A DNA stretch of 64,000 nt from Acidobacteriota bacterium (GTDB taxonomy: Bacteria; Acidobacteriota; Terriglobia; Versatilivoradales; Versatilivoraceae), in the NCBI GenBank assembly GCA_022821775.1, contig JAJECY010000247.1, forward strand, positions 2,368-66,367. Direction: 5' to 3'. Below are positions 25,241 to 59,193 of this stretch, one piece after another (within the stretch, counting starts at the first letter, position 1; each line of letters begins with the position of its first letter). A program made the translations under genes and the position numbers. Under the pieces are notes generated by a model that had not been told where the DNA came from, ran no database searches, and saw only the letters and a list, made by a program, of their open reading frames with translations.

Positions 25241-26344
25241 TTGATCGATTGGACTCAAATCGGCGAGTTCGCGACTCGCTATGCGGGTGCAGGCGCCAAA
25301 ATCGCCGGCCTGTTTCTGATGGCCTGGATCGCCTCTCGCATGATTCATCGCTACATCCCCAGGGTGCGCATGCGGCTGGTCAAAGTCATGCAGGCCCGCC
25401 GGCACGAGCCCGATCTCGAACTGGACAAACGGGCGGCCACGCTGGGGGGCATTTTCCGCAAGACGGTAGTGGTGTCGATCTGGGTGGTGGTTCTCATGAT
25501 GGCGCTGGAGGAAGCCGGCTTCAACGTGGGGCCGTTGCTGGCTGGCGCCGGGGTGGCGGGGCTGGCCGTCGGCTTCGGGGCTCAAAACCTGGTGCGGGAC
25601 GTGATTTCGGGACTGTTCATGCTGCTCGAGAACCAGGTCCGGGTCAACGACGTGGCCATCATCAACGGCACCGGGGGCCTGGTGGAGCAGATCAACCTGA
25701 GGACCACCGTGCTGCGAAGCCTGGACGGCACCGTTCACATCTTTCCCAACGGCACCATCAACACCTTGTCCAACATGACGCAAGAATACTCCTACTACGT
25801 CTTTAACATCGGCGTGGCCTACAAGGAGGATACCGACCATGTCTCGGCGGTGGTCAAGGAGCTGGCCGACGAAATGATGCAGGAGGAAACCTATCGATCG
25901 TTCATTCTGGCCCCGCTGGAAGTGATGGGGGTGGATGAGTTTGCCGACTCGGCCGTCATGATCAAGGCCCGCATCAGGACCGCGCCCATCAAGCAGTGGA
26001 TGGTGGGCCGGGAGATGAATCGCCGCATCAAGAAGAGGTTCGACGAGCTGGGCATCGAGATTCCCTTCCCCCACCGCTCACTCTACTTCGGCGAGGCCAG
26101 CAAGGCCTTCGCCACCCGCTCGGCCGGCGCCGATCCCGGCGAGATCAAGGCCATGATCCGCGAAGTGCTGCAGGAAAAGGGCTTGCAGTCCGGCGAGGTA
26201 GAGCCTCCAGCTCCGACAAGGGTGACTCCTGCCGCCCCGAAGCCGAAAGCTCGCCCGCAGCCGGCCAAGCCCGCCGCCGAACGACGCCCGCGCCGGCCGG
26301 CTCCCCTGGGAGAAAGCACGGCTGACTCCGAGGGTTACGAATGA
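25241..26344 (+). CDS. mechanosensitive ion channel (MscS) family protein
   Basis: TM helices plus a conserved MscS beta domain (NLVRDVISGLFMLLENQVRVNDVAI...VHIFPNGTI), with a low-complexity Pro/Ala/Lys C-terminal tail. Confidence 0.85.
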   Translation: MIDWTQIGEFATRYAGAGAKIAGLFLMAWIASRMIHRYIPRVRMRLVKVMQARRHEPDLELDKRAATLGGIFRKTVVVSIWVVVLMMALEEAGFNVGPLLAGAGVAGLAVGFGAQNLVRDVISGLFMLLENQVRVNDVAIINGTGGLVEQINLRTTVLRSLDGTVHIFPNGTINTLSNMTQEYSYYVFNIGVAYKEDTDHVSAVVKELADEMMQEETYRSFILAPLEVMGVDEFADSAVMIKARIRTAPIKQWMVGREMNRRIKKRFDELGIEIPFPHRSLYFGEASKAFATRSAGADPGEIKAMIREVLQEKGLQSGEVEPPAPTRVTPAAPKPKARPQPAKPAAERRPRRPAPLGESTADSEGYE

Positions 26345-27528
26345 TGGACGGCCAGCCCACAAACCGGGTAGTAACATTGGCCGACCGACCGAACTCATGC
26401 CTGTCCGCTTCAGGACTGCGGAGCCGTATTACCCACTCTTTGCGCAAACAAGGATTCCGGTTCCGATCGGGCGTTCTTGTCCCCCCAGATATCAAGGATA
26501 AGAGCAAGCTCAGGGTGCTTCATCGGGAAGCCGTCAAGCACAACGTGAGTCGCAGCCGACGTGGGCTCGAACGGTGCGAAGACCGGCTGCTTTCGTATAT
26601 CGCGTCTGGAGAAGACGTCATTCCCGACAGAATACGCCCCCGACTCGTCTTGGTACAGCCAGGCTCCGAGGACGAACTGCTGTTCCGGTACGCACGCCTG
26701 CACTGGAGCATCCCGGTGTCCGCCGGCTACGGTAGACGCTTGAGATTCGTAGTCTATGACGAATCGAATGGCAAATTGATCGGCATCTTCGGATTGGGAG
26801 ACCCCATCTTCGGCCTTGGCCCCCGCGACCGATGGATAGGATGGAGTCACAAAGCCAAGAAGAATCGGCTACAGTGCGTCATGGACCTCTTTGTGCTGGG
26901 AGCCATACCGCCCTATTCCCATCTTCTTTGCGGTAAGCTCGTCGCTCTGTTGGCGACTAGCCGAACCGTCCGGGAGGCGTTTCGACGCAAATATGGCGGC
27001 CGGCCTTCATATATCGGCCGCAAGCCATTGGACGGTCGCCTTGCCCTACTGACCACAACCTCTGCACTTGGTCGATCATCCTTGTACAACCGACTCCGAT
27101 ACAAGGATGATCTTGTCTTTCAAAGTGCGGGCTTCACACGCGGTTCGGGGGATTTTCACTTCAGCAATGGTTTTTTTGGCGACCTACGTCAGTTTGCGCT
27201 CAAACATTGCAATGCAACGGCTAAGCATACGCTGTGGGGTAAGGGTTTCCGAAATCGACGGGAGCTTGTGAGAAAGACGTTGCCACTGCTAGGTCTCCCG
27301 AAGGAGTTTCTATATCACGGTGTAAAGCGCGAAATATTCTTGGCACCGCTGGCCTCCAACACCGCAGCCTTTCTTTGCGGTGACGACCAACGACTCCAAT
27401 ACCGTGACCTTACCGAGGAAGACGTTTTCAGATGGTTCCGGGACCGATGGCTCCTGCCGCGAGCGGAACGTGACAAGAGCTACTTGGGCTTCGATTCTAA
27501 GGATTACCGGCTCTGGAGGTCGGAGTGA
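26341..27528 (+). CDS. uncharacterised 395-aa protein, first gene of the low-GC NurA/HerA island
   Basis: No motif I can assign. The start ATG overlaps the MscS stop (ATGA at 26341-26344). The stop overlaps the GTG start of the next gene (GTGA at 27525-27528). GC is lower than the flanks. Confidence 0.6.
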   Translation: MMDGQPTNRVVTLADRPNSCLSASGLRSRITHSLRKQGFRFRSGVLVPPDIKDKSKLRVLHREAVKHNVSRSRRGLERCEDRLLSYIASGEDVIPDRIRPRLVLVQPGSEDELLFRYARLHWSIPVSAGYGRRLRFVVYDESNGKLIGIFGLGDPIFGLGPRDRWIGWSHKAKKNRLQCVMDLFVLGAIPPYSHLLCGKLVALLATSRTVREAFRRKYGGRPSYIGRKPLDGRLALLTTTSALGRSSLYNRLRYKDDLVFQSAGFTRGSGDFHFSNGFFGDLRQFALKHCNATAKHTLWGKGFRNRRELVRKTLPLLGLPKEFLYHGVKREIFLAPLASNTAAFLCGDDQRLQYRDLTEEDVFRWFRDRWLLPRAERDKSYLGFDSKDYRLWRSE

Positions 27529-28214
27529 CTCAGAGGCCTTTGACTCACGATCAAACTCCATTCGCCGATCTCCCTGCAGCACTGGTTGACGAGGTCCTGG
27601 GTCAGACCTCCGCCGTCGCACAGGATCTTCTGACCTCTTTCAAAGAGGTCAGGAAGGATCGTGAAACACTTCGTGCCGAGCTTGCGAACTCCGGCTTGGT
27701 AGTAGCCGAATCCTCGCTGGGTTACCCGCCTCTGCCAACGACGTGCGGTGCGGACGGTTCGTATGCGATTGAGCGACTTCTGACGACGGATCTCGCTGCC
27801 GCAGCAGCGGTTGCAGTCGAGGGACTCACTCCCCCTTCTGAAAAGCGACACTGGGAGCTTCCCCGTCATCGGAGCTTCGTTGCCGCCGAGCCCCACGTCG
27901 AAGACACAGCCACCGTCCTTCGCGCGGTAATGCTGGGAGAAGAGTTGCACTTGGTGACGGCTGCCCCGCATGACCTATTGATGCTGGACGGTACGTTCAC
28001 CCTGCCAATCATTTATTTCAATCAGGCGCTCAACAAAGCCCCTGAAACTACCCAGCTACGCTGCGCCAAGAAGTTCCTCGATAACTGTTCGACCTACCTC
28101 GAAGCCTACCGGACCACCTTACAATCGGAACGTTCGGATAAGCACTTCGTGGCGCTTCCGAAGTATTCGACCCGGCGGGAAATCGGCAGTGAATTGGGTT
28201 GGCCCGAGAACTAA
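27525..28214 (+). CDS. nurA: NurA-like 5'-3' nuclease, N-terminal part (ends at an in-frame TAA)
   Basis: NurA motifs are present: GADGS (the DGS aspartate motif), then LGEELHL...LMLDGTF (Glu + second Asp-Gly motif). Ends at TAA 28212-28214. The reading frame continues in-frame into the next ORF. Confidence 0.6.
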   Translation: MTQRPLTHDQTPFADLPAALVDEVLGQTSAVAQDLLTSFKEVRKDRETLRAELANSGLVVAESSLGYPPLPTTCGADGSYAIERLLTTDLAAAAAVAVEGLTPPSEKRHWELPRHRSFVAAEPHVEDTATVLRAVMLGEELHLVTAAPHDLLMLDGTFTLPIIYFNQALNKAPETTQLRCAKKFLDNCSTYLEAYRTTLQSERSDKHFVALPKYSTRREIGSELGWPEN

Positions 28215-28226
28215 GACGACCGTGGG

Positions 28227-28703
28227 ATGCTCACCATGCTTCTGAACCCCGGCGAATTGACAAAACCACGACTACTGGAACACCCACGGGACAGCGAGGG
28301 GAATACCACTTGGCACCTGAATACGCAGCGACTGCCCGACAAGTCGAAGCGCCAGGCTGCCGAGCTGGCGTCTGAGATTGTCTCGGCACTCGGGGACCTT
28401 CGAGTCTTCTACTACAAGCCCCAGGACTGGCTACCTGCACTTAGGATCGAAGTTTCCGCTAGCGTTGCCTCAAATGCTCACCGCTTGGCGACGGTGGTAC
28501 ATGGCATCAAGCACCAGACGGCTACCCCATCGATGCTGGAGCCCTATCCGATCTACCTTGCCGATCGCACCGTAAAGGCACTCGCACGAGCGATTCCTGC
28601 TTTCAGGCAGGTGACGACTCAACGAATTTCGGAGCAGTACGAAGGGGACATCGGCGAGGTGTTCTTCGCAATGCACGGTTATCGCAGCGAGATCGGGAGA
28701 TGA
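28227..28703 (+). CDS. nurA: NurA-like nuclease, C-terminal part (same frame as 27525..28214)
   Basis: Contains the NurA C-terminal-type motif EPYPIYLADRTVKALARA. Same frame (frame 0) as the upstream fragment, separated by one TAA plus 4 codons. The stop overlaps the HerA start (ATGA at 28700-28703). Confidence 0.55.
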   Translation: MLTMLLNPGELTKPRLLEHPRDSEGNTTWHLNTQRLPDKSKRQAAELASEIVSALGDLRVFYYKPQDWLPALRIEVSASVASNAHRLATVVHGIKHQTATPSMLEPYPIYLADRTVKALARAIPAFRQVTTQRISEQYEGDIGEVFFAMHGYRSEIGR

Positions 28704-30487
28704 CAATGACTGACGATTCAGCAACGAATCTAGACAGGCTCATCGATCAGACTGAGCGGTTGGGTGTCGTCGGCTCACCTTCGTCTACTGCCCAGCTTGC
28801 ACTCGACATTCTCGGTTCCGCCGTCACCCGCAAGCTGGTCGGGGAACTCGCGCTCTTCCGCTTCTTGCAGGACACGAGTCCACACTATGCGCTCGGTCAG
28901 ATTACAGAAATTCAACTCCGCAATATCTGGCACGAAGACCCCACCATGCGCAGCCTTATCCGACAGCGCGGCCGGGTCGACGCCGTGAGTGAGCGTCAAG
29001 ATACCCACCTCGGCCAGATGATTATCAGCGCGGTCTTCCAAGAAGGAGGTTCAGCGGGCTACGAACCGAGCATCCTTGGAACCGTGCCGTCAACTGGAAC
29101 CCGAATCCATCTCGTGACGGATCCGGTGCTCGATGAACTGCTCCGTCCGTATCGGGAGCAGATCTTTTATCTTGGACACGTGTACGGCTCCAAGCCGAAG
29201 CTGCCGCTCTGGTTTAAACACTTCGACAAGGGACCGGACGGCGCCGGCGAAGCCTATCACCTCGGTATCTTCGGCAAGACTGGCTCGGGCAAGTCGGTTC
29301 TGGCCAAGATGATCCTTTTGGCCTATGCCCGATATACCAAGATGGCTCTCCTAGTGATTGATCCACAGGGAGAGTTTGCAAAAGATATGAAATCGAACGC
29401 ACCAAGCGGCGAGTTTCGACTTCCCTTAAAGGATCTCATCCGGTCTCAGGGCAAGAAAGCACACGTTCTAACTGTTCGAAAACTCGTTCTTGATCGATGG
29501 GACTTGTTCCGACAGATCCTCGCGGAGTCGAAGTTCTTTCGAGAACTTCAGGTAATGACTCAAGACAAAGTCGAAACTGCATGTGATCAGTTCACTGAAG
29601 CAATGCGAAAAACATCGGGAATCAAGCTTGCCACGCTGCATGAATCAGATGTTTTCAAGAAGGCATGGAAACTTCTTACACAGGATAAGCTTCGTAACAA
29701 GATTTATGCGCGGGAGGGAGCTGCCGCGGAACGTTTCAGAGATGCTGTAAACGAAGCTAATCCGGATGAAATTTATCAAGGCATCTGGTTGCCTGTAGCG
29801 CGGCTGTTTCAAGAGGACCGCGAAGCTGGACGCCGCAAAGTGGAGGATGCCCTCAGGTGGTTGCTGAAATTCAAAGAACATACCAATCGGCCCGTTCTTG
29901 TCGTCGATGTTTCCAAGGAGCAAGCACAAGGGCTACTTTGGAATGACACGATTCAGTCGCTGGTCATCAAACGTCTTCTGGAAGGTGTCACCCACATTGC
30001 TGAAGATATGTACCGGGAAGGAGAGAGTCTCAACGCCCTGGTCGTCATCGACGAAGCCCACCGCTTGGCCCCGGGGCCTCGTGATCTATCGCGGGACGAC
30101 GATGCGGCACGCGGCGTGCGCTCAGTGTTGATCGACGCGGCCCGGACGACGCGAAAGTATGGACTGGGCTGGCTCTTCATCAGCCAGACGCTCTCGAGCC
30201 TGCACCCGGAGATCCTCCAGCAGCTCCGTATCTTCTTCTTCGGCTTCGGACTTGGACTCGGACAAGAGTTCCAGTCGCTTCGGCAGCTTGTGGGCTCCTC
30301 TGGTACGGCACTCGACTTGTATCAATTGTTTCGCGATCCACACTCAGCTTTCGATCCCAGGAGCCGACAATACTCCTTCATGACCATTGGGCCGGTGAGT
30401 CCGTTATCATTTTCCGGAAGCCCGCTCTTTCTGAATGCTTTCAACACGGTAGACGCCTTCTTGAATGCGAACGAACTTGGCAGGTGA
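28700..30487 (+). CDS. herA: HerA-like / DUF87-type P-loop ATPase (FtsK-HerA superfamily translocase)
   Basis: Walker A GIFGKTGSGKS and Walker B ALVVIDEAHRLAP. Size about 595 aa. Immediately downstream of and translationally coupled to the NurA fragments. Lowest GC in the window. Confidence 0.8.
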   Translation: MTMTDDSATNLDRLIDQTERLGVVGSPSSTAQLALDILGSAVTRKLVGELALFRFLQDTSPHYALGQITEIQLRNIWHEDPTMRSLIRQRGRVDAVSERQDTHLGQMIISAVFQEGGSAGYEPSILGTVPSTGTRIHLVTDPVLDELLRPYREQIFYLGHVYGSKPKLPLWFKHFDKGPDGAGEAYHLGIFGKTGSGKSVLAKMILLAYARYTKMALLVIDPQGEFAKDMKSNAPSGEFRLPLKDLIRSQGKKAHVLTVRKLVLDRWDLFRQILAESKFFRELQVMTQDKVETACDQFTEAMRKTSGIKLATLHESDVFKKAWKLLTQDKLRNKIYAREGAAAERFRDAVNEANPDEIYQGIWLPVARLFQEDREAGRRKVEDALRWLLKFKEHTNRPVLVVDVSKEQAQGLLWNDTIQSLVIKRLLEGVTHIAEDMYREGESLNALVVIDEAHRLAPGPRDLSRDDDAARGVRSVLIDAARTTRKYGLGWLFISQTLSSLHPEILQQLRIFFFGFGLGLGQEFQSLRQLVGSSGTALDLYQLFRDPHSAFDPRSRQYSFMTIGPVSPLSFSGSPLFLNAFNTVDAFLNANELGR

Positions 30488-30615
30488 CAAAATGGGTGCA
30501 GTCGTTTGTTCCCAGGGACAAAGAAACCGGGGGGACGAGTATAGGACGTTGTTGAATAGCCGGAAAAACATCCTCGACTTCCGGTTTTGGAGGCACTTGG
30601 GTTTAGAGGCGACCA

Positions 30616-32352
30616 ATGACCTATAGCGAAGCAGAAATCAGGGTTCAACTCAGCCTCGGCGAGGACAGCCGTTGGGAATTCAAGCAAGTCGAATTCGCCG
30701 GCAACTACCCAAGGAATCCGAGGCGGGACGATTTGGCGGATGAGATCGCAGCCTTCGCCAATGCGGATGGCGGTATGCTGCTCTGCGGCGTCACAGACGC
30801 AGGCGAGGTGCAGGGCATGTCTCGTGAGCAGATTGTCGAATTGGATTCTGTTCTGGTCGAGGTGAGTTCTGACGCCATCAAACCAGCCGTTCGCATCCGC
30901 ACCCATCACAGGCACCTCGATGGCAAGCGGTTGCTACTGGTTGAAGTGCCGGCCGGCGAATCGCTGTACGAAAGCCCAGGGGGAAGCTATGTTCGGGTGG
31001 GTGGCACAAAGCGAAAGATGAACAGCGACGAGCAGCTTCGCTTGGCCCAACGAAGAGGACAGGCGCGTTTCCGCTCGTTCGACGAGCAACCCCTCCCAAG
31101 TACCGGATTCAGAACTCTGGACGAATCGCTCTGGAAGCCGCTGTTAACGGCCGAAGGTGCGGTACATCCCGAGTCGGCGCTCGGGAAGCTGGCGCTCCTG
31201 GCGCCCGACCAGGCGGGAATTCCGCGCTCGACGGTAGCCGGCGTGTTGTTGTGCACCCGAAATCCCGAGCAGCACCTCCCCAACGCGTGTATCACGGCGA
31301 CCCGATACCGGGGAAAGGATCGAGCTTCCGGCCAGATCGATGCACAGGAGATCACCGGCCCGCTAGACCGCCAGATCGCCTCCGCAGTGGCCTTCGCCAT
31401 AAGGAACATGCACGTTGCTGCACGCAAGGAGCCGGCCCGCGTGGACCTGCCCCAGTACAGCGACAAGGCACTGTTCGAGGCCATCGTCAATGCCGTGGCG
31501 CATCGCGACTATTCGATGCATGCCAGCAAGATTCGCCTCTCCATGTTCGAAGACCGCCTGGAAATTCAGTCGCCTGGCTCGCTGCCAAACAACTTGACCG
31601 TCGACAGCATGGCAACGCGGCAAGCAACTCGCAACCAGGCCTTGACCTCGGTGCTGGGACGAATGCACGTCGGGGGCGTCCAAGGCTCGGAGGACAGGCA
31701 GTATTTCATGGAGCGGCGCGGAGACGGAGTTCCCATTATCCTGCGCGAAACCAAGCAACTCAGCGGCAAACTGCCGGAATATCGCCTGATCGATGCTTCG
31801 GAAGTCTGCCTGATCATCCCTGCGGCAGTGCAGGAGCGGAGCCCTGCCCGGACTGTCATCACCGTGCGGTCCGGCGGCCAACCCTTGCCTGGCGCCGACC
31901 TGTTGGCTCTTTTTTCGAACAATACCTGGAAGCGCGCGACCACGGACGAGTCCGGGGAGGCGGCCGTCGACCTGCACACGACGCATCTCCCCATGAGGGT
32001 GTTCGCTGCCGCTCCCGGCTACGCTGCACACCTGGAACGTGATTGGGTCCCCAGCAGTCGAGCGCTCACGATAGAAGTCAAGGAACTGCAGGACGGTGGC
32101 AGTGTCATCTTTCCCGAGGCGACGGGATGCCTTCCAGGCCTCAAGGGCAGGCTCAATCCCATACGCGACACCCATGACCGAACCTATCTCTACGCGTCCA
32201 ACGTTGCCATCAACGAGGGCGAGCAGCAACCGGTCTACTTCATCCCCGGTGAAGACCTGCGGTTAACCGATGCCGACGGAACCGCGCTGCTCGTGCGCAT
32301 TGTCGATATCGCAGGCCGCTCGACTCTTTTGGAATATCGTCCATACTCCTGA
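30616..32352 (+). CDS. AlbA_2 (Schlafen-like DNA-binding) + HATPase_c_4 domain protein with extra C-terminal domain
   Basis: N-terminus: RWEFKQVEF...ADEIAAFANADGGMLLCGVTDAGEVQGM (AlbA_2-type). Middle: ALFEAIVNAVAHRDYSMHASKIRLSMFEDRLEIQSPGSLP (HATPase_c_4-type). About 200 aa of unassigned, more GC-rich C-terminal sequence. Confidence 0.75.
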   Translation: MTYSEAEIRVQLSLGEDSRWEFKQVEFAGNYPRNPRRDDLADEIAAFANADGGMLLCGVTDAGEVQGMSREQIVELDSVLVEVSSDAIKPAVRIRTHHRHLDGKRLLLVEVPAGESLYESPGGSYVRVGGTKRKMNSDEQLRLAQRRGQARFRSFDEQPLPSTGFRTLDESLWKPLLTAEGAVHPESALGKLALLAPDQAGIPRSTVAGVLLCTRNPEQHLPNACITATRYRGKDRASGQIDAQEITGPLDRQIASAVAFAIRNMHVAARKEPARVDLPQYSDKALFEAIVNAVAHRDYSMHASKIRLSMFEDRLEIQSPGSLPNNLTVDSMATRQATRNQALTSVLGRMHVGGVQGSEDRQYFMERRGDGVPIILRETKQLSGKLPEYRLIDASEVCLIIPAAVQERSPARTVITVRSGGQPLPGADLLALFSNNTWKRATTDESGEAAVDLHTTHLPMRVFAAAPGYAAHLERDWVPSSRALTIEVKELQDGGSVIFPEATGCLPGLKGRLNPIRDTHDRTYLYASNVAINEGEQQPVYFIPGEDLRLTDADGTALLVRIVDIAGRSTLLEYRPYS

Positions 32353-36818: not shown

Positions 36819-39221
36819 TTACCAGTACCAGCGGACCTTGGCGGACAAGGTGCGGGGTTGCACCACGCGGGTCCCTACGAAGACGGATTGGAAGTTGTAG
36901 AGCGCCGTCCGGTCGGTCAGGTTGGCCGCCTGGAAAACCAGGTCCCAGACGCGGCGGTCGCCGCGAATGTGCTTGTAGCCGACGGTGGCATCCAGGATGG
37001 TCCTGGCCTTTACCCGAGGAGGGTCCGAGATCAGGTTCACCAGGGGCAGTTGGTCGAAGTAGTCCGGGTCGCGGGCCACCTCGGCCGGATCGGAAGGATT
37101 GGGCACCAGGCCGCTGTCGTAGCGAACCTGCCAGCTCGTCCACCAGTTCCTGCGCGGACGGTAGGTCAGCAGGCCGTTGACCGCCAGCTTCTGATCGTGG
37201 TCGATCACGAAGGGCCCCTCGCTCAGGAGGTCCAGCGCGGCGCTCCCCAGGAAGAGCCCGCCGGTAAAGGGCGGGGTGACGACCACGTGATAGTGGGTGG
37301 TGCTGACCGACCCGCTGAAACGGTGAATTCCCGGCAGGGTGAGGCGGGTTTCGAATCCGTTGACGTTGGAACGGGCCAGCGAAGTGGGGAAGATGATCCC
37401 GGTATTGAGGAAGTTGTCGTTGTCCTGCAGATCGCGGGAATCCTTGTGGAAAAACACGGCGTTCAGGCTGGCCCGGTCGGCCAGCCTCTGCTGCAGCCCC
37501 ACCTCGTAGACGTTCTGGCGCTGGGGGCCGATCAGGATGACCCCGCCGTTGAGGTTGCGCCTCACGTCCGGCGGGGCCAGACGTCCGGCCGCCTCCGAGT
37601 TGGATAGCAGCAGATTTTCGTTGGGTGGAGTCTGGTAGTTCCGATTGTAGGAAGCCCGCAGCACAGTTCCGGTCTCTCTGAGGTGGTAGGCCACACCCAG
37701 GCGGGGTTGGAGTTGAGATCCGACCGTCAGGAAACGGTAGCGATCGTAGCGCCCGCCCAGGTTGACCTGGAAGCGCCCCAGCTTGATGCGATCCTGCAGA
37801 AAGACCGTCTGCAGTTGGCCGGCCCCCTTGTCGGAAAACCGGAACCAATGGCCGCCTCGGGTGAGGTCGAAGGGAGCCAGGTTGGGGTTGAAGTCCCGCG
37901 ACCCGGGAGGGTTGAAGCGGGGGTCGGTAATTCCGAAAAAGAAGTTCTCGCTTAGGGGAAAATACTGGTAGTCGAAACCGATTTTCCATTGATGCCGGCC
38001 GCGCAGGATGTTGAAGCGGTTGAAGGTGGAGAAAGTCGACAGATGCCGGGCCAGCGAGGCCGTCACCGGGGTGTCTCCCGCGCTGGGGAAGAGTTGGGCC
38101 ACCGTGGTTCGGTAGGAGGTGGTGGAATCGAAGGTGGTCGAGGGAGAGACCAGGCGGACCCAGCCCAGCGAGACCGCCGCGTCGCGCAGGTGGCGCCTCT
38201 GTTGCTGGCCGTTCAGGTGCTGGGACCTCAAGTTGGCCAACTGGAAGGAGGAACGACCGGCCAGCAGGCTCAGCCGAAGATTGTCCTTCGGAGTGGGGTG
38301 GTAGTCCAGCCGCAGGAAGCCGCGCTCGGCGTTGCCGCCGTTGTGGAGATTGTCGAGCGAGGGACTGTCGAGGAAGCGGTTGCTCTTCACGGCCGACACC
38401 GAGCCGAAGTAAGCCAGCCTTTCCCCGGCCCCGCCCAGTTGCAGCATCGCCGAGCCGGTGTCGAACTGGGCGGCGCCGAGCTCGAGCATCCCGAAGAAAT
38501 CGCCTCCTCCGTCAAAGCCCGAATGGGTGGTGATGTTGGCCACTCCCGATACCTTGCTGCCGTAGTCCGGCGGAATATCTCCGGTGTAGAGCTCGAGCGA
38601 TTGCACCATGGATGGATCGATGGAGGTGGCGAAGGAGCCGGTGAATTGATCGCTGATCGGCATCCCGTCGATCACGTAGGTCATCTGGTTGTGGGCTCCC
38701 CGCGGATGAACGGCTCCATTGGCGTTGGCGGCGAAGCCGGGAAAGTTGAGCAGGACCCCTTCCAGTCCGCGGGCCCCGGCCTGGACGGGCATCTCCTCGA
38801 TGGCCTTGCGGTTGAGCTCGGTGCGGGTCCCGGTGGCCTCGGTATCGATCAGGGTGATTCGCTCCACCAGGGAGACATCGATGGCCTCCCGCTGAGTCGC
38901 CAGCGAGAGCCGCACAGGAATGAGGACCGGAACGTTGGAGCGAAGCTGGACGGCCTGGGTGTGGGTGGCGAAGCCGGAACGGCTTACCTGCAGCTCATAG
39001 GTCTGGAAGGGAACGTTGAGAACCTGGAAGGAGCCATCGGACCGGGTGGCGGTCCGGCGCTCGAACCCGGTCAGCAGGTTGGTCAAACGAACACTGGCTC
39101 CGGAGACGGCGGCTCCCAGCGGATCGACCACCGTTCCGCGCAGTTGGGCCGTCGCCTGAGCCCCGGCCTGCCGGGGGACGGTGAGAATCAACAAGATTCC
39201 CAGAAGCAACGAATAGACCAT
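36819..39221 (-). CDS. TonB-dependent receptor-like outer-membrane protein with N-terminal carboxypeptidase-regulatory-like domain
   Basis: Trimmed to ATG 39221 (MVYSLLLGILLILTVPRQAGAQA signal). Then LRGTVVDPLGAAVSGASVRLTN (CarbopepD_reg-like), a plug region (MPVQAGARGLEGVLLNFPG), and a long beta-barrel ending ...KVRWYW (C-terminal aromatic). Confidence 0.78.
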   Translation of the reverse strand: MVYSLLLGILLILTVPRQAGAQATAQLRGTVVDPLGAAVSGASVRLTNLLTGFERRTATRSDGSFQVLNVPFQTYELQVSRSGFATHTQAVQLRSNVPVLIPVRLSLATQREAIDVSLVERITLIDTEATGTRTELNRKAIEEMPVQAGARGLEGVLLNFPGFAANANGAVHPRGAHNQMTYVIDGMPISDQFTGSFATSIDPSMVQSLELYTGDIPPDYGSKVSGVANITTHSGFDGGGDFFGMLELGAAQFDTGSAMLQLGGAGERLAYFGSVSAVKSNRFLDSPSLDNLHNGGNAERGFLRLDYHPTPKDNLRLSLLAGRSSFQLANLRSQHLNGQQQRRHLRDAAVSLGWVRLVSPSTTFDSTTSYRTTVAQLFPSAGDTPVTASLARHLSTFSTFNRFNILRGRHQWKIGFDYQYFPLSENFFFGITDPRFNPPGSRDFNPNLAPFDLTRGGHWFRFSDKGAGQLQTVFLQDRIKLGRFQVNLGGRYDRYRFLTVGSQLQPRLGVAYHLRETGTVLRASYNRNYQTPPNENLLLSNSEAAGRLAPPDVRRNLNGGVILIGPQRQNVYEVGLQQRLADRASLNAVFFHKDSRDLQDNDNFLNTGIIFPTSLARSNVNGFETRLTLPGIHRFSGSVSTTHYHVVVTPPFTGGLFLGSAALDLLSEGPFVIDHDQKLAVNGLLTYRPRRNWWTSWQVRYDSGLVPNPSDPAEVARDPDYFDQLPLVNLISDPPRVKARTILDATVGYKHIRGDRRVWDLVFQAANLTDRTALYNFQSVFVGTRVVQPRTLSAKVRWYW

Positions 39222-39469
39222 CGCCCGGATTTGCGTCAATTCCAGCGGGGGTGGCAGGAAACTCTCCCAGGGAGAGAATCGCAGGGAAGCACCGGTGAAA
39301 CGTCTGCCTGGGACACTCCGCCGCATCCCCCTGTCCTCCTGGAGCCACCGGGCTGAACCTCTTCCTCGGAAGCATGATTGCCCGCCTGTTCATCCAAGCT
39401 TTTGCAAGCCTAAAATACAGTTTAGATAAGGCTAAATATTCTGTCAACGGTAATGTGCGCGGGGGCGGC

Positions 39470-39625
39470 CCGTGCTGCCGATCGTTACTCCTGGGACGCC
39501 GCGTTTCCCCCCACCGGCTCGACTGCGGGCTTTGCACTCTCGCGACGCCGCGTTGGCCCCCCTCCGGCTCGAAGACGGGCTTCGCCCTCTCGCCGACTCC
39601 CCCTCAAGGGGGGAGTGATTCTTGA
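39470..39625. repeat. GC-rich intergenic repeat element, copy A (two ~36-bp sub-repeats + ACTCCCCCTCAAGGGGGGAGT hairpin)
   Basis: CCACCGGCTCGACTGCGGGCTTTGCACTCTCGCGACGCCGCGTTGGCCCCCCTCCGGCTCGAAGACGGGCTTCGCCCTCTCGCCGACTCCCCCTCAAGGGGGGAGTGATT is near-identical to 50440-50580 and is the reverse complement of 45430-45510. Confidence 0.8.
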
Positions 39626-39640
39626 GCCGCGAACCAGCGG

Positions 39641-40852
39641 TTAGTTCGTAAGAGGGGACAGCAGCCAGCCCAGGAAACCGCCCCCGACCACCACCCAGGC
39701 CAGGTTGACTTTCCAGCGGAGGCCGATGAGGGTGGCCGCCACGGCGATGAGCCAGGCCGGCCAGGAAGTGAGTGTTGCCTGCCCCAGCTTCACGGTGACG
39801 GCCGCCATCAGCGCCACGGCGCTGACGTTGACGGCGTCCAGAAAGGCAGCCGTCCAGGCGGATTTCCGAAGGCGGGGGATCCAGGGATTGACCAGGGCGA
39901 CAAAGAGGAAGGAAGGAGCGAAAATGGCGGTGGTCGCCACGGCCGCCCCCCCGGCTCCGGCGATCATGTAGCCGATGAAGGTGGCGGTGGACAGGACGGG
40001 TCCGGGGGTGAACTGACCGATGGCAATGGCGTCCAGCAGCTCCCGCTGAGTCAGCCAGCCATACTCGTGGACCAGGCCGCCCTGCAGAAACGCAACCAGT
40101 ACGTAACCGCTTCCATAGAGGACGGCGCCCACCTTCAGGAAGAAGAGCCCCAGCTTCCACAAGGAGGCCGAAGCTGCTCCCGCCCCGCCGGCACCCGCCG
40201 CGACCGCCAGCAGAACTCCGGTCCTCTTGGCAAGCCATTGGCCCAACCAGGCTCCGGCAACCACCGGAAGAATCTTCCCCCGTCGAGAACGAAACGCCTG
40301 GGGCAGCCGCAACCAGAGCATGCCGACGAGGCCCCCCAGCAGGAGCGCGGCCACCTCGTTGACCTGCAGCAGGGAAGCTGCCAGCACGGCGGCGCCGATG
40401 GCCCCCAGCGACCAGGTCTTGCAGGCCTTGTTCCCCAGCCGCCAGACGGAAACCGCGATGATGGCCACCACGGCCGGCTTGATCCCCAGAAGCCAGGGCG
40501 CGACCTGGGGGAGTTGTCCCAAATGGACGTATATCCAGGCCAGGCCGGCCGTCAAGCCCACGGCGGGCAGAATGAAGCAGATCCCCGCAACCGCCAGGCC
40601 GCTCCAACCGGCTCTGACATAGCCGAGATGGATGGCCATCTCGGTAGAGTTGGGACCGGGGATCAGGTTGGTGGCTCCCAACAGGTCCAGGAAGCGCTCC
40701 CGTGTCAACCAACCGCGCCGCGCCACCACTTCCTCGTCCATCATGGCGATGTGAGCCGCCGGCCCACCGAAGCCCAGAATTCCCAGCTTCAGGAAGACCA
40801 GGGACAGCTCCTTGAGTCGGGTGAGGGCGCTTGGGTTCGAGGTTATGGTCAA
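39641..40852 (-). CDS. chrA: chromate transporter ChrA family protein
   Basis: 403 aa, duplicated ChrA halves (GILGFGGPAAHIAMM... and a second GxxxxGG-rich half), polytopic membrane protein. Confidence 0.85.
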   Translation of the reverse strand: MTITSNPSALTRLKELSLVFLKLGILGFGGPAAHIAMMDEEVVARRGWLTRERFLDLLGATNLIPGPNSTEMAIHLGYVRAGWSGLAVAGICFILPAVGLTAGLAWIYVHLGQLPQVAPWLLGIKPAVVAIIAVSVWRLGNKACKTWSLGAIGAAVLAASLLQVNEVAALLLGGLVGMLWLRLPQAFRSRRGKILPVVAGAWLGQWLAKRTGVLLAVAAGAGGAGAASASLWKLGLFFLKVGAVLYGSGYVLVAFLQGGLVHEYGWLTQRELLDAIAIGQFTPGPVLSTATFIGYMIAGAGGAAVATTAIFAPSFLFVALVNPWIPRLRKSAWTAAFLDAVNVSAVALMAAVTVKLGQATLTSWPAWLIAVAATLIGLRWKVNLAWVVVGGGFLGWLLSPLTN

Positions 40853-40862
40853 GAGGGTGTGT

Positions 40863-41345
40863 TTACATTTGGATGGGGGAGGTTAACCCTTCGGATGGAA
40901 CCCGAAAAAAGAGTTCGAGTTTGTAGTCTTGGTAGCTGACAGCAAAGTCGCCCTTCATAATGATATCCATCCCAATCAGAACCCGAGTGAATCGCGAGGG
41001 TGGCGGGTTTTTCTGTTGACGAATCTCCACATCTACGATCGCTACAGGAAACAGTAGATTGAACAAATATACATTCGCCAGATGAAAGTGTGCAGACCTT
41101 GGCCCGTGCGACGTGCTGATCGTGGCTGGACGTTGCGGGGTCAGGCCAAGGTCGGCAACCAGTTTTTTGACAAAAGCCGTATTGGTAGCGCCAGTGTCCC
41201 AAACTGCAAAGGTGTCTATCTTGGGTGGTGGAGGCCGCATCCCGTTGTGTTGACGCCACGGGAGGCTGACGCTGACTGGGGTCTTGATCACGGCTCCATC
41301 GCGTAAGTCAAGAAACTGCCTAACCACAACAGGGAATTGGGTCAT
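40863..41345 (-). CDS. retropepsin-like (clan AA, DTGA) aspartic protease, low-GC
   Basis: The track ORF 40863..41396 is trimmed to ATG 41345, which overlaps the stop of the upstream 77-aa ORF (ATGA). Catalytic-type motif FAVWDTGATNTAFV plus flap/C-terminal VLIGMDIIMKGDFAVSY. GC is well below the neighbours. Confidence 0.6.
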   Translation of the reverse strand: MTQFPVVVRQFLDLRDGAVIKTPVSVSLPWRQHNGMRPPPPKIDTFAVWDTGATNTAFVKKLVADLGLTPQRPATISTSHGPRSAHFHLANVYLFNLLFPVAIVDVEIRQQKNPPPSRFTRVLIGMDIIMKGDFAVSYQDYKLELFFRVPSEGLTSPIQM

Positions 41346-41575
41346 TCGACGTTGGAGTAGAACATCACGGGACGTTCCTCGTGGAGGAAATAGCATGGGT
41401 GGATCAAGAAGTTGCCGGGCACAAGATTTTTTTCGTCTACAGCGTTCCAGTAGGCATCGCTATCCGAAGGAAAGGTTCCCAAAATACCGTCTGCGCTGAT
41501 CAAGACGTACTCTCCGTGGTGCTGCTTTGCAAGGTCTTCTTGGTGGCTGCGAAAGGTCTTCATAAGCTCGTCCAT
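41342..41575 (-). CDS. hypothetical 77-aa protein translationally coupled to the aspartic protease
   Basis: MDELMKTFRSHQEDLAKQHHGEYVLISADGILGTFPSDSDAYWNAV... No recognisable domain. Low GC. ATGA overlap with the protease start. Confidence 0.45.
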   Translation of the reverse strand: MDELMKTFRSHQEDLAKQHHGEYVLISADGILGTFPSDSDAYWNAVDEKNLVPGNFLIHPCYFLHEERPVMFYSNVE

Positions 41576-41949
41576 GGATCGCCTCCTGGGAATAGAAGGA
41601 AGGGAAGGGACAGGCCAGCCCTTGATCGAGCGCGGGACACACCTCTCCGAGCAGGGAGAAATGTGCTATTTGCGGGAAGGAGATTACCGGCATAGCCGGC
41701 CAGGGCTCGACCTCAAAAGCGCGGGGTTTTCGCGCTTGAGGGAGGCCGCCTCGGTGCGATCTGGGCGGCGGGCGTTCACACTGTTGAACAACCGTGATGC
41801 TGACAGGGTAACGGCTCCCCTGTCAAGCGCCTTAGCGCCTTTTTGCTTTGGGTCCGTCGATCGGACTCGACTATGATGCCATCGAGGCCGGATGGATCCG
41901 GCGGTCCAGGGCATCCAGAAAAGAGACGGGAACCGACGAGGACAAAAGA

Positions 41950-42435
41950 ATGACGCTGGCCAATTGGAAAACTCAAGCTTACAACGGGATTCAAAGCCTG
42001 CTATTCAACAATCCCCATCGAGTAATCGAGTTCAGCGTCGCTCAGAGCGACGGCAGCCGGCGCAACCGGGCGGAAATTCCGGCCCCGGTACGAAGGCTCT
42101 ACGAAACCGAGGCGCCGGAGGAACGGACTTGCCTGCAGACGACCCAGTTCGTCCATCACATGATGATCCCTCCCGGGGGGCGTCACGTGGCTGAACTCCA
42201 CATCCACCCCGATGCCGAAGAGATCCTGGTGGTGACCAGGGGGAGTGGCCAGGCTCGCATTGCCGGCCGCAGCCAACCGGTGGCAAGGGAAGACGTGCTC
42301 TACGTCCCTCCCGGAGCCGAACACGAAATTCGTAACACCGGCGAGGAGTTTTTGGGTATACTGTTCATCAACGTGCCGACGGGAGAAGGTTTGAAGAAGC
42401 TGCTGTCGGCCCAGGAGAAGACCAAGAGCCCTTGA
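41950..42435 (+). CDS. cupin domain protein
   Basis: Internal ATG 41950 (MTLANWK...). The cupin two-His motif region is HHMMIPPGGRHVAELHIHPDAEEILVVTRGSG...VLYVPPGAEHEIRN. Confidence 0.65.
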   Translation: MTLANWKTQAYNGIQSLLFNNPHRVIEFSVAQSDGSRRNRAEIPAPVRRLYETEAPEERTCLQTTQFVHHMMIPPGGRHVAELHIHPDAEEILVVTRGSGQARIAGRSQPVAREDVLYVPPGAEHEIRNTGEEFLGILFINVPTGEGLKKLLSAQEKTKSP

Positions 42436-42749
42436 TCCCCTCGCACCGCCGGCTGAAAATCGGACCGGGGCGGTGCATCGCCGAAGTGATATGGCGATCG
42501 ACCCGGTCTGGCTGCAATTCGGTTTTCCCACCGACGACGAGTATGAGTTTTTAGAGAGATCCTCCCGGACAGGTTCCGCAGCGCTTACCCACCAGGCAGC
42601 CGTTCCTCCCATCAGGAATCATCCTGAGACGATGCAACTTTCCGCACGCGAAAGACATCTGGGTAGGAGGCACGTCGCTGTCTGCGGTTGAAACGGGACA
42701 AGCGACGGTGCCCGCCGGCACGATGTGATCGATTGAAGGAGAGTATCGA

Positions 42750-42947
42750 ATGTTTGTAACCTGCCCCAAATGCAACCGGGGACTTACAGTTAAGGAACTG
42801 GTTACCGATTCCCACCAGTGCAGCCCGGAGAAGCCTTCAAACCAGGCTTCCAACCAGGCCAAGCGGTTGACCAGGCTTCCCCGCAACCCGAAGTACATCA
42901 AGGACAACTTTGATTCCCTGGTTGCGGCCGCCCTGAAGAACTCCTGA
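42750..42947 (+). CDS. possible small zinc-ribbon-like protein (65 aa)
   Basis: MFVTCPKCNRGLTVKELVTDSHQCSPEK... (CPxC ... QC). Lower GC. No homology recognised. Could be non-coding. Confidence 0.25.
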   Translation: MFVTCPKCNRGLTVKELVTDSHQCSPEKPSNQASNQAKRLTRLPRNPKYIKDNFDSLVAAALKNS

Positions 42948-42984
42948 AAGTTCTCCTCCCCCAAACCCCGGCGGCCGTCGGTCG

Positions 42985-44838
42985 TCAATGTTCCGATGCG
43001 GACTCGATGGCCACCGCCGGGGTCTCGCCTTCGGGCTCGCGCACCGAATCCACCAGGTTCTTGACTTCGTCGCTGGGTTCCCGGCAGAAGGGCGTCAGTC
43101 CGAGCGTCACCAGGAAATTGAGCGCCATGCCGATGGCGCCGATGCCCTGAGGGCTGATTCCCCGCTCGAAGACGCCGAAGGTCCAGGGGGACATTCCTCC
43201 GTACACGCTGGCCACAATGTAGAAGCTGGTGAAGGCCAGGCCCACGATCATCCCCGCCACGGCCGGCACCGTTCCCACCCGCTTGTGGAAGATCCCCAGC
43301 ACGATGGCGGGGAAGAAGGAGGCGGCCGCCAGGCCGAAGGCGAAGGCCACCACCTGGCTGACGAAGCCCGGCGGGAAGATGCCGAAGAGTCCGGCCACCA
43401 CCACCGCCACCCCGATGACGCTGCGCCCCACCAACAGCCGCTGCTTCTCGCTGGCGGCGGGGTTGATCACCCGGGCGTAGAGGTCGTGAGCCACGGCCGA
43501 GGAGATGACCAGCAGCAGCCCCGAGGCGGTGGAAAGGGCCGCCGCCAATCCTCCGGCGGCCACCAGCGCCACGATCCAGGCGAAGAGCTCCGCCATCTCG
43601 GGGGTGGCCAGCACGATGATGTCGCGGTCCGGACCGGAGAGCCTGGCCTCCCGAAGCAGGGGACGCCAGTCGCGCCCTTCAGTGCCGCCGGAGGCGACCC
43701 ACTCCTGATGGCTCCCGGTGATCTGAGCCAGGGACATCGACTCACCCTCGACCACAACCTTGCCTGCCTTGTAGCTGAAGATCTCGTTGTCGTCGCCCCC
43801 GGAGTAGCGAAGCCGCCGGTCGCCGTCGTCCAGCCAAAGGATCAATCCGGTCTTCTCCCAACTTCTGAACCAGTCCGGCAATTGCGCGGCCGTCCTTCCC
43901 TGAAGCGAGTCGATCATGTAGTAGCGGGCGAAGGCTCCGGTGGCCGGCGCCGTCAGGTAGAGCAGGGCGATGAAGAACAGGGCCCAGAAGGCCGATGTGC
44001 GGGCCGCCCGAACGGTCTTCACCGTGTAGAAGCGAACGATGACGTGGGGAAGTCCGGCGGTTCCGGCCATCAAGGCCAGGGTCACCAGGAAGACATTGGC
44101 CATGTCCCAGGGCCCGTCGAAGGCTGCCGTGTAGCTGGAGAAGCCGAGGTCGGCATGGATCTTGTCCAGCTTGTCCAGCAGGTAGCCGCCCTCGATCAGC
44201 TCCGAACCCAGTCCTATCTGCGGAAAGGCGTGCCCGGTCAGGCGGATGCTGATGGCGATGGCGGGAATGAGGAAGGCCGTGATCAATACCCAGTACTGGG
44301 CCACCTGGGTCCAGGTGATCCCCTTCATGCCTCCCAGGGTGGCATAAACGAAGACGATGGCCATGCCGATGGCGACGCCCACGTTGATGTCCACTTCCAG
44401 GAAGCGGGAGAAGACCACCCCCACCCCGCGCATCTGTCCGGCCACGTAGGTGAAGCTGACGAAAAGCGCCGAGATCACCGCCACCAGGCGCGCCGTGTTG
44501 GAGGCGTAGCGGTCGCCGATGAAGTCGGGGACGGTGAAGTGGCCGAACTTGCGGAGATAGGGCGCCAGCAGGAGCGCCAGCAGCACGTAGCCGCCGGTCC
44601 AGCCCATCAGGTACATCCCGCCGGCATAGCCCATGAAGCTGATCAGCCCGGCCATGGAAATGAAGGAGGCCGCGCTCATCCAGTCGGCCGCGGTGGCCAT
44701 GCCGTTGGCCGCCGCCGGAACGCCCCGTCCGGCCACGTAGAAACCCTGCGTGTCGCGCACCCGGCTGAGCCAGGCGATGAGCAGGTAGAGGCCGAAGCTC
44801 AACCCCACAAACACGAAGGTCCAGGCGCTGACGGTCAT
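42985..44838 (-). CDS. sodium:solute symporter (SSS) family, large VC_2705-type subunit
   Basis: 617 aa, SSS N-terminal region (GFYVAGRGVPAAANGMATAADWMSAASFISMAGL). Its stop overlaps the start of the upstream DUF4212 gene (44835-44838), the canonical small-subunit/large-subunit arrangement. Confidence 0.88.
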   Translation of the reverse strand: MTVSAWTFVFVGLSFGLYLLIAWLSRVRDTQGFYVAGRGVPAAANGMATAADWMSAASFISMAGLISFMGYAGGMYLMGWTGGYVLLALLLAPYLRKFGHFTVPDFIGDRYASNTARLVAVISALFVSFTYVAGQMRGVGVVFSRFLEVDINVGVAIGMAIVFVYATLGGMKGITWTQVAQYWVLITAFLIPAIAISIRLTGHAFPQIGLGSELIEGGYLLDKLDKIHADLGFSSYTAAFDGPWDMANVFLVTLALMAGTAGLPHVIVRFYTVKTVRAARTSAFWALFFIALLYLTAPATGAFARYYMIDSLQGRTAAQLPDWFRSWEKTGLILWLDDGDRRLRYSGGDDNEIFSYKAGKVVVEGESMSLAQITGSHQEWVASGGTEGRDWRPLLREARLSGPDRDIIVLATPEMAELFAWIVALVAAGGLAAALSTASGLLLVISSAVAHDLYARVINPAASEKQRLLVGRSVIGVAVVVAGLFGIFPPGFVSQVVAFAFGLAAASFFPAIVLGIFHKRVGTVPAVAGMIVGLAFTSFYIVASVYGGMSPWTFGVFERGISPQGIGAIGMALNFLVTLGLTPFCREPSDEVKNLVDSVREPEGETPAVAIESASEH

Positions 44839-57937: not shown

Positions 57938-58804
57938 ATTGGCCAACTTCCAGATGTATCCTCTAGTACATCGAGAGATTGCACGACTGAAGAGCATTTG
58001 ATTCCCGCTTGCCTTGGCGGCAAACTCTCTGCGAAGTTCCTCTGCAAAAACTGCAACTCAACGTTGGGGCACCGCGAGGAAAGTCGTGTCCGTAAAGACC
58101 CGATGATTGTCGCAGGGATTGAGCGTCTGGCCAGAAAGCGCCTGGACTTGGCCGATGGCTTGCGGAAGCGGTTGTCGTACACCGGCCACAGCCAACGAGG
58201 CGAGGTCCGTGGCTTTATGCGAAGTGGAGAGTTCATTGTGAGCGAACAACCTCAGGACGATGGATCGCTTATCGTGCAAGAGGACAAGGCACTGGAGGTT
58301 GTAAAAACCATAGCCGTGCGCAAAGGTATGGGGTCATTGATCCATGGCGCTGACGATTTGAGCCACCTATCGCCCGGCGAATCGGTTGAATTCGCCCCCG
58401 GAATCTGGATTACGAAGTGGGCTGTGGACTCAGTTGAACCCGATCTCAGCGGACTGGAGATTGATGCGGTTGTTCCAGCAAAGATTGCATTCGAGTTTCT
58501 TGCACTACATTGCGGCGATGACATTTACGGGGACTCCCCGCAGATCAAGTCAATTCGGCGCCAGCTTCTTGCCGGTGAACTGTCCGAAAATAATGTCAAC
58601 GTGGAGCGTCTGATGGCACAGAACAATCGTCTGTTCCATGGTCTGGTCTTTGAGGGAAACAACCCGGGAGCGTGCGTTCAGATTAGGCTCTTCGGACGCC
58701 TAGCCTTCCGCGTACAGTTTCGCTGCTTTGCTATTCGTTGCACTCGTGTGAGTTATACTCACGACCTGCTGTCTGGAGATGATGACCTACACGCTGTCTC
58801 ATAG
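57938..58804 (+). pseudogene. HNH-endonuclease-motif protein with degenerate N-terminus (no ATG/GTG start; low GC)
   Basis: After the stop at 57935-57937, the frame reads ...SRDCTTEEHLIPACLGGKLSAKFLCKNCNSTLGH. This matches the HNH core (EH-LIP-x3-GG-x6-LCxxCN-x3-G) but has only one upstream Cys. The only start candidate is TTG at 57998, which lies inside the motif. Region GC is well below the flanks. Confidence 0.4.
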
Positions 58805-58956
58805 GACAAAACCTTCGAACAGATCTTCCCCGGTGACCTGTTGAAACGTGCCCCTTACGAGATCGAGTGCGTTGGAATAGGCACTTTCAATACAACGCCG
58901 GTTGCCTGGCCAAGAAGAATGGATCCTTAAAACAGCATCGGATGCAGGAGGCAGAA

Positions 58957-59193
58957 ATGGATTCTGAACTCATTCAATCGGACCCCTCAGTCATGATGGG
59001 GAAGCCCGTCGTCGCAGGCACACGCATTACCGTCGAGTTGATTCTGGAAAAACTCTCTGCAGGGGAAACAGTCGACCAAATCCTAGAGGCTCATCCCCGT
59101 TTGACTCGGGAAGGCATTTTGGCAGCCTTGAATTTTGCCGCTCGAGCTCTGCGCGCCGATGTTGTGTATCCTACCGTTGAGCAAAGTCCATGA
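58957..59193 (+). CDS. DUF433 domain protein (antitoxin-like partner of DUF5615)
   Basis: GKPVVAGTRITVELILEKLSAGETVDQILEAHPRLTREGILAALNFA matches DUF433. AGGAGG lies 5 nt upstream of ATG 58957. The stop overlaps the next start (ATGA 59190-59193). Confidence 0.75.
   Translation: MDSELIQSDPSVMMGKPVVAGTRITVELILEKLSAGETVDQILEAHPRLTREGILAALNFAARALRADVVYPTVEQSP

Follow-up and report, generated by a model that had tools for sequence, protein, structure and literature searches.

The subject of this analysis is a pair of overlapping genes in a 64,000-nucleotide stretch of DNA from an Acidobacteriota bacterium (GenBank assembly GCA_022821775.1, contig JAJECY010000247.1, positions 2,368 to 66,367 of the forward strand), hereafter the window. 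The first gene encodes a protein of 77 amino acids (aa) that appears, by transitive homology and predicted fold, to be a divergent member of the DUF5678 family (PF18929), and the second encodes a 160-aa protein with the motifs of a retropepsin-like aspartic protease. The two genes form a unit that is conserved across bacterial phyla and phages, and the unit is an autonomous, self-contained and horizontally mobile cassette. The reading that I favour, tentatively and at a little short of an even chance, is that the cassette is a module of a protease and its cognate inhibitor that would resemble a toxin-antitoxin (TA) system.

Relatives of the protease were found at 306 loci in a scan with one genome per species, which belong to Dehalococcoidia, Patescibacteria, Nitrospirales, Bacteroidales, Verrucomicrobiota, Acidobacteriota and further groups, and on 188 viral contigs in IMG/VR. 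Pairing was counted in 160 fetched loci (80 of the 306 genome loci and 80 of the 188 viral contigs), and 151 of them (74/80 genome, 77/80 viral) have a DUF5678-like open reading frame (ORF) immediately 5' of the protease gene and in the same orientation. A first-pass annotation of this DNA, made from the letters alone, had presented the two genes as coupled partners, and their co-occurrence bears this out. The gap between partner and protease, taken from the genome-contig and related metagenome loci, mostly falls between -8 and +13 nt, the commonest value being -4 (an ATGA overlap, 19 loci), followed by -1 (13 loci). Leptospira LE1-type phages carry the pair next to their portal gene (L177, KF114879.1 73406-72800 region), with the protease start overlapping the partner stop as TAATG; these records label the 80-aa partner hypothetical (AGS80773.1) and leave the protease ORF unannotated. 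A search of a plasmid collection returned SEC-C-motif matches alone, with no protease domain.

The small protein has no direct match in Pfam (E<=1), nor in NCBIfam, PADLOC or PHROG, so that its first-pass description as having no recognisable domain is correct for direct Pfam and NCBIfam scans; it does not survive a profile search and a fold comparison. A profile built from the window clade and one Bacteroidota relative recovers 32 proteins, many of them already annotated as PF18929, at E 1e-12 to 1e-17, and 50 of 68 partners of homologous proteases match DUF5678. The AlphaFold2 (AF2) model of the window protein has a mean predicted local distance difference test score (pLDDT) of 86 and shows an alpha-beta-beta-alpha-beta core (helix 2-19, strands 23-27 and 30-35, helix 38-48, strand 56-60) followed by a floppy tail of low confidence. 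Used as the query of a BFVD fold search, this model retrieves DUF5678 proteins at E 0.02 with a template-modelling (TM) score of 0.56, the top match being an 80-aa viral protein (E 6e-5, TM 0.74). The partner family is large, with 4,261 representatives of clusters made at 50% identity at E<=1e-3 and 1,039 at E<=1e-10. Nearly all DUF5678-like relatives are stand-alone proteins of 75-125 aa; among the best 150 there are a few tandem duplications, and none is fused to a protease. A few DUF5678-like proteins of 160-190 aa (P0041, P0058, P0092 and P0151) carry two tandem copies of the domain.

The second protein is best described, from its motifs and those of its relatives, as belonging to a distinct retropepsin-like subfamily of Asp_protease_2 (PF13650). 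The window protein itself scores 21.1 bits (E 5e-4) against this model, under the gathering cut-off of 24.3, and is likewise below threshold for gag-asp_proteas, whereas Asp_protease_2 is matched by 64/64 aligned family members (E<=0.01, best 4e-10) and gag-asp_proteas by 63/64; the placement is thus made at the level of the family and not from the window sequence alone. W49, D50, T51, G125, M126, G132, D133 and P150 do not vary across 136 non-redundant relatives; conservation is 96% or more at G52, A53 and T54, 94% at D127 and 88% at the flap glycine G81. Residues 47-55 read A-V-W-D-T-G-A-T-N, with a hydrophobic residue before DTGA. The first-pass identification of a retropepsin-like DTGA protease is therefore upheld, and the second catalytic elements that such an enzyme should show on alignment are kept (G125-M126-D127 and the flap glycine). 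Membership of a TIGR clan_AA family, named in the first-pass annotation as an example for a profile search, is not: the sole NCBIfam match, TIGR02281 (clan_AA_DTGA), reaches 14.5 bits against a cut-off of 57.95 and was rejected. Also rejected was a 177-aa reading of the protease from 41396, as homologues start at the overlap. A search of PDB sequences with the family profile gave weak matches, all to proteins of retropepsin fold, with foamy virus protease (E 0.002), Ddi1 (E 0.04) and human T-lymphotropic virus protease (E 0.5), the remaining matches being SEC-C-motif peptides (SecA, YchJ) against the C-terminal extension.

That extension varies across the family. A SEC-C zinc knuckle is present at the C-terminus of 26/64 proteases (~40%) and many others end in a highly basic stretch, which suggests that most members may be targeted to ribosomes or nucleic acid. 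Both the knuckle and the basic extension are missing from the window clade, which carries proline-rich insertions at residues 38-41 and 113-117; the window copy is a minimal, divergent variant. Residue 59 of the window protease (41160-41171) is Val (NTAF-V-KK), other copies of the clade having Asp or Glu, or Ile in P0002, and the wider family Thr or Ser. The closest protease cluster, P0001 (94% identical), reads W-N-T-G-A-T, with Asn in place of the catalytic Asp, and a sister clade (L013/L018/P0006) reads D-T-A-A at the active site; both are possibly natural inactivated variants.

The genomic surroundings of the pair show its autonomy. In 69 genome loci the immediate neighbours are unrelated to one another and mostly housekeeping genes (enolase, SecA, NAD synthase, glycosyltransferases), and no third gene recurs beside the pair. 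Individual copies lie beside an IS1595 transposase (L011) or a type I restriction system (L013), near a HigB/HigA-like pair (L015), or on the strand opposite to the surrounding prophage tail operon (L014). On viral contigs the neighbours are tape-measure proteins, which are the commonest, CI-like repressors, integrases, Ant and endolysins; neighbours of this kind mark accessory ("moron") positions of temperate phages. The window cassette recurs in other Acidobacteriota at ~90% nucleotide identity, with homology that covers exactly the extent listed in Table 1, and there it is flanked by genes for an ABC transporter and PhzF, with a tRNA 580 nt away.

The composition of the islet supports a foreign origin. 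The pair has a guanine-cytosine (GC) content of 0.515, whereas the mean for the window is 0.636 (standard deviation 0.040 for 713-bp windows), and only 13/1266 windows of 713 bp fall below 0.52, in agreement with the low-GC islet of the first-pass annotation. GC at third codon positions is 0.65 in the small gene and 0.57 in the protease, compared with 0.82 in chrA and 0.89 in the next transporter gene. The same dip accompanies copies of the pair in other hosts, and acquisition of the islet by horizontal transfer is supported.

All features of the islet are on the minus strand, which had previously been left unstated. As first described, the two genes overlap by ATGA (protease ATG at 41345-41343 on the small-gene TGA at 41344-41342) and the pair ends 10 nt before chrA, whose start codon is a TTG at 40852. 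The chrA product matches Pfam Chromate_transp (E 4e-82) and TIGR00937 (E 1e-94). A functional link of the pair to chrA was considered and rejected: adjacency to chrA is confined to the window's species and, with neighbours unrelated from locus to locus, it is incidental. A terminator scan found nothing convincing between protease and chrA, so cassette and chrA are probably co-transcribed here by accident of insertion. A promoter scan likewise found no convincing sigma-70 promoter-like site upstream of the small gene, and an Rfam search of 39000-43500 gave no match in or near the islet.

Both ORFs are real genes under purifying selection. Close homologues number eight for the protease and five for the partner. 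Compared with L007, the copy that is 90% identical in DNA and keeps the ATGA overlap, the small gene has a ratio of non-synonymous to synonymous substitution rates (dN/dS) of 0.26 and the protease one of 0.37. Conservation of the 77-aa ORF in homologous loci had been set beforehand as a test, and it is borne out by this ratio as well as by the 151/160 loci that have the ORF. Within the species, six loci with flanks 92-99% identical (L001-L006) could be compared, and the small protein is 100% identical in all six. L001 and L003 have suffered a 458-bp deletion that leaves a 12-codon stump of the protease, the segment being present in L002, L004, L005 and L006. Between the window and L002 the protease differs by nine non-synonymous and three synonymous changes, and the small gene by zero and three. 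This asymmetry, in which the protease seems expendable or selected against and the partner is kept, is the pattern that would be expected of a toxin and its antidote, and retention of the partner after loss of the protease is the opposite of what would be expected if the small protein needed the protease. The Asn that replaces the catalytic Asp in P0001 fits the same pattern of asymmetric decay. At ~41802-41858, between a cupin gene and the small gene, 243 bp are absent in the window, L004 and L005 and present in L001, L002, L003 and L006.

The part of the partner proposed to meet the protease is its C-terminal tail. Residues 66-77 are the block of lowest pLDDT in the model and yet are conserved, with a family consensus of Y-T-Q-T-F-H-S-R-V and a window version of R-P-V-M-F-Y-S-N-V. 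Mutual information with average product correction (MI-APC), calculated over 136 paired sequences (effective number of sequences, Neff, 112), places tail positions 70, 71, 73 and 75 with protease residue 109 (109-110) at the top of the inter-protein pairs, with z values that reach 5.8. The tail and the protease site change together in several separate clades; for example, ...YTNYISS[IM] occurs with V-C/I-D in place of V-T-E. Protease residues 108-110 lie ~15 residues ahead of G-M-D, and by analogy would belong to a strand or loop that lines the substrate cleft; a profile-profile alignment (hhalign) of the family to HIV-1 protease aligned the DTGA region alone, with a probability of 9%, so that residue 109 has no mapped position in a solved structure. 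In addition, the tail looks like the last strand of the protease itself (T-x-F-S-F-R-I-P-S), and in retropepsins the last strand forms the dimer interface. The floppy tail of the partner probably engages the protease; that it blocks the enzyme as a pseudo-substrate or as a mimic of dimerisation is suggestive only.

These observations can be assembled into the following model. The DUF5678-type protein would be a cognate negative regulator, comparable to an antitoxin, and the product of the second gene a cytoplasmic retropepsin-like protease that, by analogy, would be active as a homodimer with one D-T-G-A per subunit. Through translational coupling the partner would be produced before the protease and in no smaller amount. 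Its conserved flexible tail would make direct contact with the protease, docked in the substrate cleft or on the terminal beta-strands of the dimer interface, and so keep the enzyme silent. When the partner is lost or displaced, be it by loss of a plasmid or prophage, by stress or by phage infection, the protease would be free to cleave cellular targets, and the outcome would be addiction or a behaviour of the abortive-infection type, possibly used by prophages and plasmids. The idea of an inhibitor in a TA-like module is favoured by the autonomy and mobility of the cassette, by its accessory positions in prophages and by the loss of the protease where the partner is retained. I also count in its favour that other low-GC islets of the window hold TA or defence genes (DUF433/DUF5615 and DruA/HerA-like).

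Several results weigh against this model. The partner has no recognisable DNA-binding domain (helix-turn-helix (HTH), ribbon-helix-helix (RHH) or AbrB-type) and no structural relative in the PDB. The AF2 model of the protease, made from a 7-sequence alignment, has a pLDDT of 35, so that the retropepsin fold rests on motifs and weak profile matches, with the window protein below the Pfam cut-off and PDB matches at E 0.002-0.5. PADLOC and PHROGs scans of both proteins gave no more than weak PADLOC matches of the protease (PDC-M08B, E 1e-3), PADLOC having no model for the partner, and the immediate neighbours at the 69 genome loci show little enrichment for defence islands, with few defence genes among them. 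The covariation draws on few effective sequences and phylogeny is uncontrolled, and the within-species counts are tiny. Finally, a few loci hold the protease without a DUF5678 partner. In Paludibacteraceae and Prevotella (L046:3726-3881, L051, L055, L065) another conserved ORF of ~50 aa (MKDIRFPDITLTVEAKPWPANHVARV...) precedes the protease, which may represent partner swapping, and on two viral contigs (L172:3835-5348, L174:1915-3428) the protease overlaps the end of a 356-aa ORF and has no small partner.

What other roles could tie a small protein so closely to a protease? The small protein might be a dedicated substrate or precursor whose tail is trimmed, or from which a peptide is released, to give an active product. 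Such a role would fit the strict co-inheritance of the two genes, a tail that is conserved yet predicted to be disordered, as processing sites often are, and the covariation of that tail with a protease position near the presumed substrate cleft. However, the small gene stays unchanged in the species after the protease is deleted, which would be odd for a precursor in need of processing; the family shows no signal peptide, leader, export genes or conserved downstream acceptor gene; and the tail amounts to just ~10 residues at the extreme C-terminus. I regard a substrate role as improbable, and a similarly slim chance falls to a partner that acts positively, as a chaperone, activator or adaptor in folding, dimerisation or substrate delivery, with a protease that makes non-toxic regulatory cuts. 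Obligate co-occurrence and translational coupling fit any stoichiometric complex, and the SEC-C knuckles (26/64) or basic tails of many proteases hint at delivery to one specific partner, for instance ribosomes or nucleic acid, but a positive role leaves unexplained the patchy mobile distribution, the accessory positions in prophages, the low GC and the retention of orphan partners.

The phage contexts raise the further idea of a morphogenesis protease that processes virion proteins (tape measure, portal or tail), with chromosomal copies as prophage remnants. Relatives on 188 viral contigs, tape-measure genes as top neighbours and the pair beside the portal gene of Leptospira LE1-type phages would suit it, but most genome loci, the window included, have no phage genes nearby, isolated copies are still under purifying selection, and the L014 pair runs opposite in strand to the tail operon, which makes it an insertion there. 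The prohead and tail proteases known to me also belong to other clans, and I consider a morphogenetic role very improbable indeed. A different kind of doubt concerns the window alone, where the cassette could be an inert, decaying passenger whatever the family does elsewhere. Its protease is deleted in sister strains and has a within-species dN/dS near 1, and the window copy lacks the 5' leader described below, a C-terminal extension and a sigma-70 promoter-like site; on the other side, neither ORF is disrupted, every invariant motif is there along with a strong Shine-Dalgarno sequence and the ATGA overlap, and the small gene shows no amino-acid change across L001-L006. Decay is an unlikely account of the window copy and, were it true, it would be compatible with a protease-inhibitor module in the family at large.

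If the protease-inhibitor module is generalized, DUF5678 and retropepsin-like pairs would form a large unrecognised class of TA or abortive-infection systems with a cytoplasmic toxin resembling HIV protease, in which the partner tail would serve as a pseudo-substrate or dimer-strand mimic and, in most members, the released protease would be guided to ribosomes or nucleoprotein targets by its SEC-C knuckle or basic tail. I consider this extension possible but doubtful. In any case, one protease subfamily is firmly tied to a DUF5678 partner across hundreds of bacterial species and in phages, and if the partner is an inhibitor, it would bring a new toxin fold to TA or defence biology, a function for a Pfam DUF, and a natural protein inhibitor of a retropepsin-type enzyme that would be relevant to the design of protease inhibitors. 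The Leptospira LE1-type phages offer a cultured entry point.

Beyond the coding sequences, a ~220-nt leader lies 5' of the small gene in the 90%-identical cassettes and in a more distant pair of loci, and is absent from the window. It is conserved between cassettes that are just 67% identical overall, and more so than the coding sequence. Within the leader are a TTGACT box, a tandem duplication of 10 nt (GGGGTAACAT) and a palindrome, ATGCC-N5-GGCAT. It gave no match in Rfam, and a promoter/operator and a structured RNA are both possible roles for it.

Two further low-GC islets of the window were noted. The second, at 26341-32352, carries defence-type genes in an unusual combination, DruA being present without other Druantia genes but with a NurA/HerA-like pair. 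The third, at 57998-59555, contains overlapping DUF433 (58867-59193) and DUF5615 (59190-59555) genes, a known PIN-like TA arrangement. Features of the islets and of the leader are collected in Table 1.

Table 1. Coordinates of the protease-partner cassette and of other features; positions are those of the window unless a locus is named.
Feature	Position	Strand	Basis
Partner gene (77 aa), the first of the two	41342..41575	-	ORF reading
Shine-Dalgarno AGGAGG, 6 nt 5' of the ATG of the small gene	41582..41587	-	Sequence reading
Retropepsin-like aspartic protease gene, 160 aa	40863..41345	-	ORF reading
Catalytic motif W49-D50-T51-G52-A53-T54-N55 (WDTGATN)	41181..41201	-	Sequence reading
Second retropepsin motif L123-I-G125-M126-D127-I-I129, counterpart of retroviral I-I-G-R-N/D	40959..40979	-	Sequence reading
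C-terminal tail of the small protein, residues 66-77, predicted disordered, candidate protease-contacting segment	41345..41380	-	AF2, alignment, MI-APC
Segment absent from some same-species strains (nearly whole protease gone, small gene untouched)	40870..41327	-	Strain loci
Cassette extent common to other Acidobacteriota genomes, ~90% nucleotide identity, other context	40854..41575	-	blastn vs L007, L008, L010, L017; alignment for 3' boundary
Leader, ~220 nt	L007:3779-4000; L017:3552-3770; L013:4530-4767; L018:463-700		
DruA (PF14236, E 4e-109), second islet	26341-27528		
Weak NurA-like ORF, second islet	27525-28214		
HerA-like DUF87 ATPase, second islet	28700-30487		
Schlafen/AlbA_2 + HATPase_c_4 protein, second islet	30616-32352		
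268-aa ORF with weak HNH_5 match, third islet	57998-58804		

How does the pair compare with known systems? It shares with type II TA systems an arrangement of two small genes that overlap, run in the same direction and begin with the smaller, an autonomous, mobile and patchy distribution, positions on prophages and beside insertion sequences and restriction-modification genes, and a first gene that survives as an orphan. It differs in that the partner lacks the HTH, RHH or AbrB-type DNA-binding domain usual in an antitoxin; that domain apart, the pair has the architecture of a type II TA system as far as genes alone can tell. I know of no TA toxin that is a retropepsin-like aspartic protease. 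Among catalogued defence candidates, PADLOC's PDC-M08 was rejected: the similarity of its component B to the protease is that of a generic retropepsin motif and no model matches the partner. A search for PDC-M08A in the partner and nine relatives gave no match, the only return being one unrelated weak match to DpdH.

Retroviral and Ddi1 retropepsins (clan AA, family A2) have in common with the window protease the D-T-G-A motif, the flap glycine and, ahead of a C-terminal beta-hairpin, a motif of the form hydrophobic-G-[R/M]-[D/N]. In sequence they are only marginally similar to it (E 0.002-0.5), and the window protease is free-standing, encoded by bacteria or phages, not part of a polyprotein, and accompanied by a dedicated small partner. 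TIGR02281 proteins share the D-T-G-A motif, at a score far under the cut-off. In Rickettsia, the retropepsin-like protease APRc is embedded in the membrane and processes autotransporters, whereas the window protease has no predicted membrane segment and no partner of that kind. APRc (RC1339) is a characterised bacterial enzyme of the single-lobe retropepsin-like type (Rickettsia; PMC4140852), and in this it resembles the window protease. A literature search on DUF5678, PDC-M08, Asp_protease_2 and partnered bacterial retropepsins found nothing on the pair, nor on DUF5678 or a bacterial retropepsin with a partner. To my knowledge, bacterial retropepsin-like proteases are almost unstudied, and I know of none with a dedicated protein partner.

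The closest comparison is with the catalogued, uncharacterised families themselves, DUF5678 (PF18929) beside Asp_protease_2 (PF13650), to which the window pair corresponds in families, gene order and coupling. Set against those pairs, the window represents a divergent Acidobacteriota clade, with a partner that misses the Pfam model, a protease that scores below the gathering cut-off, proline-rich insertions, and neither SEC-C knuckle nor basic tail. Thus, both families are already known as catalogued parts; what would be new is that they function together as one module, with an aspartic protease in the position of a toxin.

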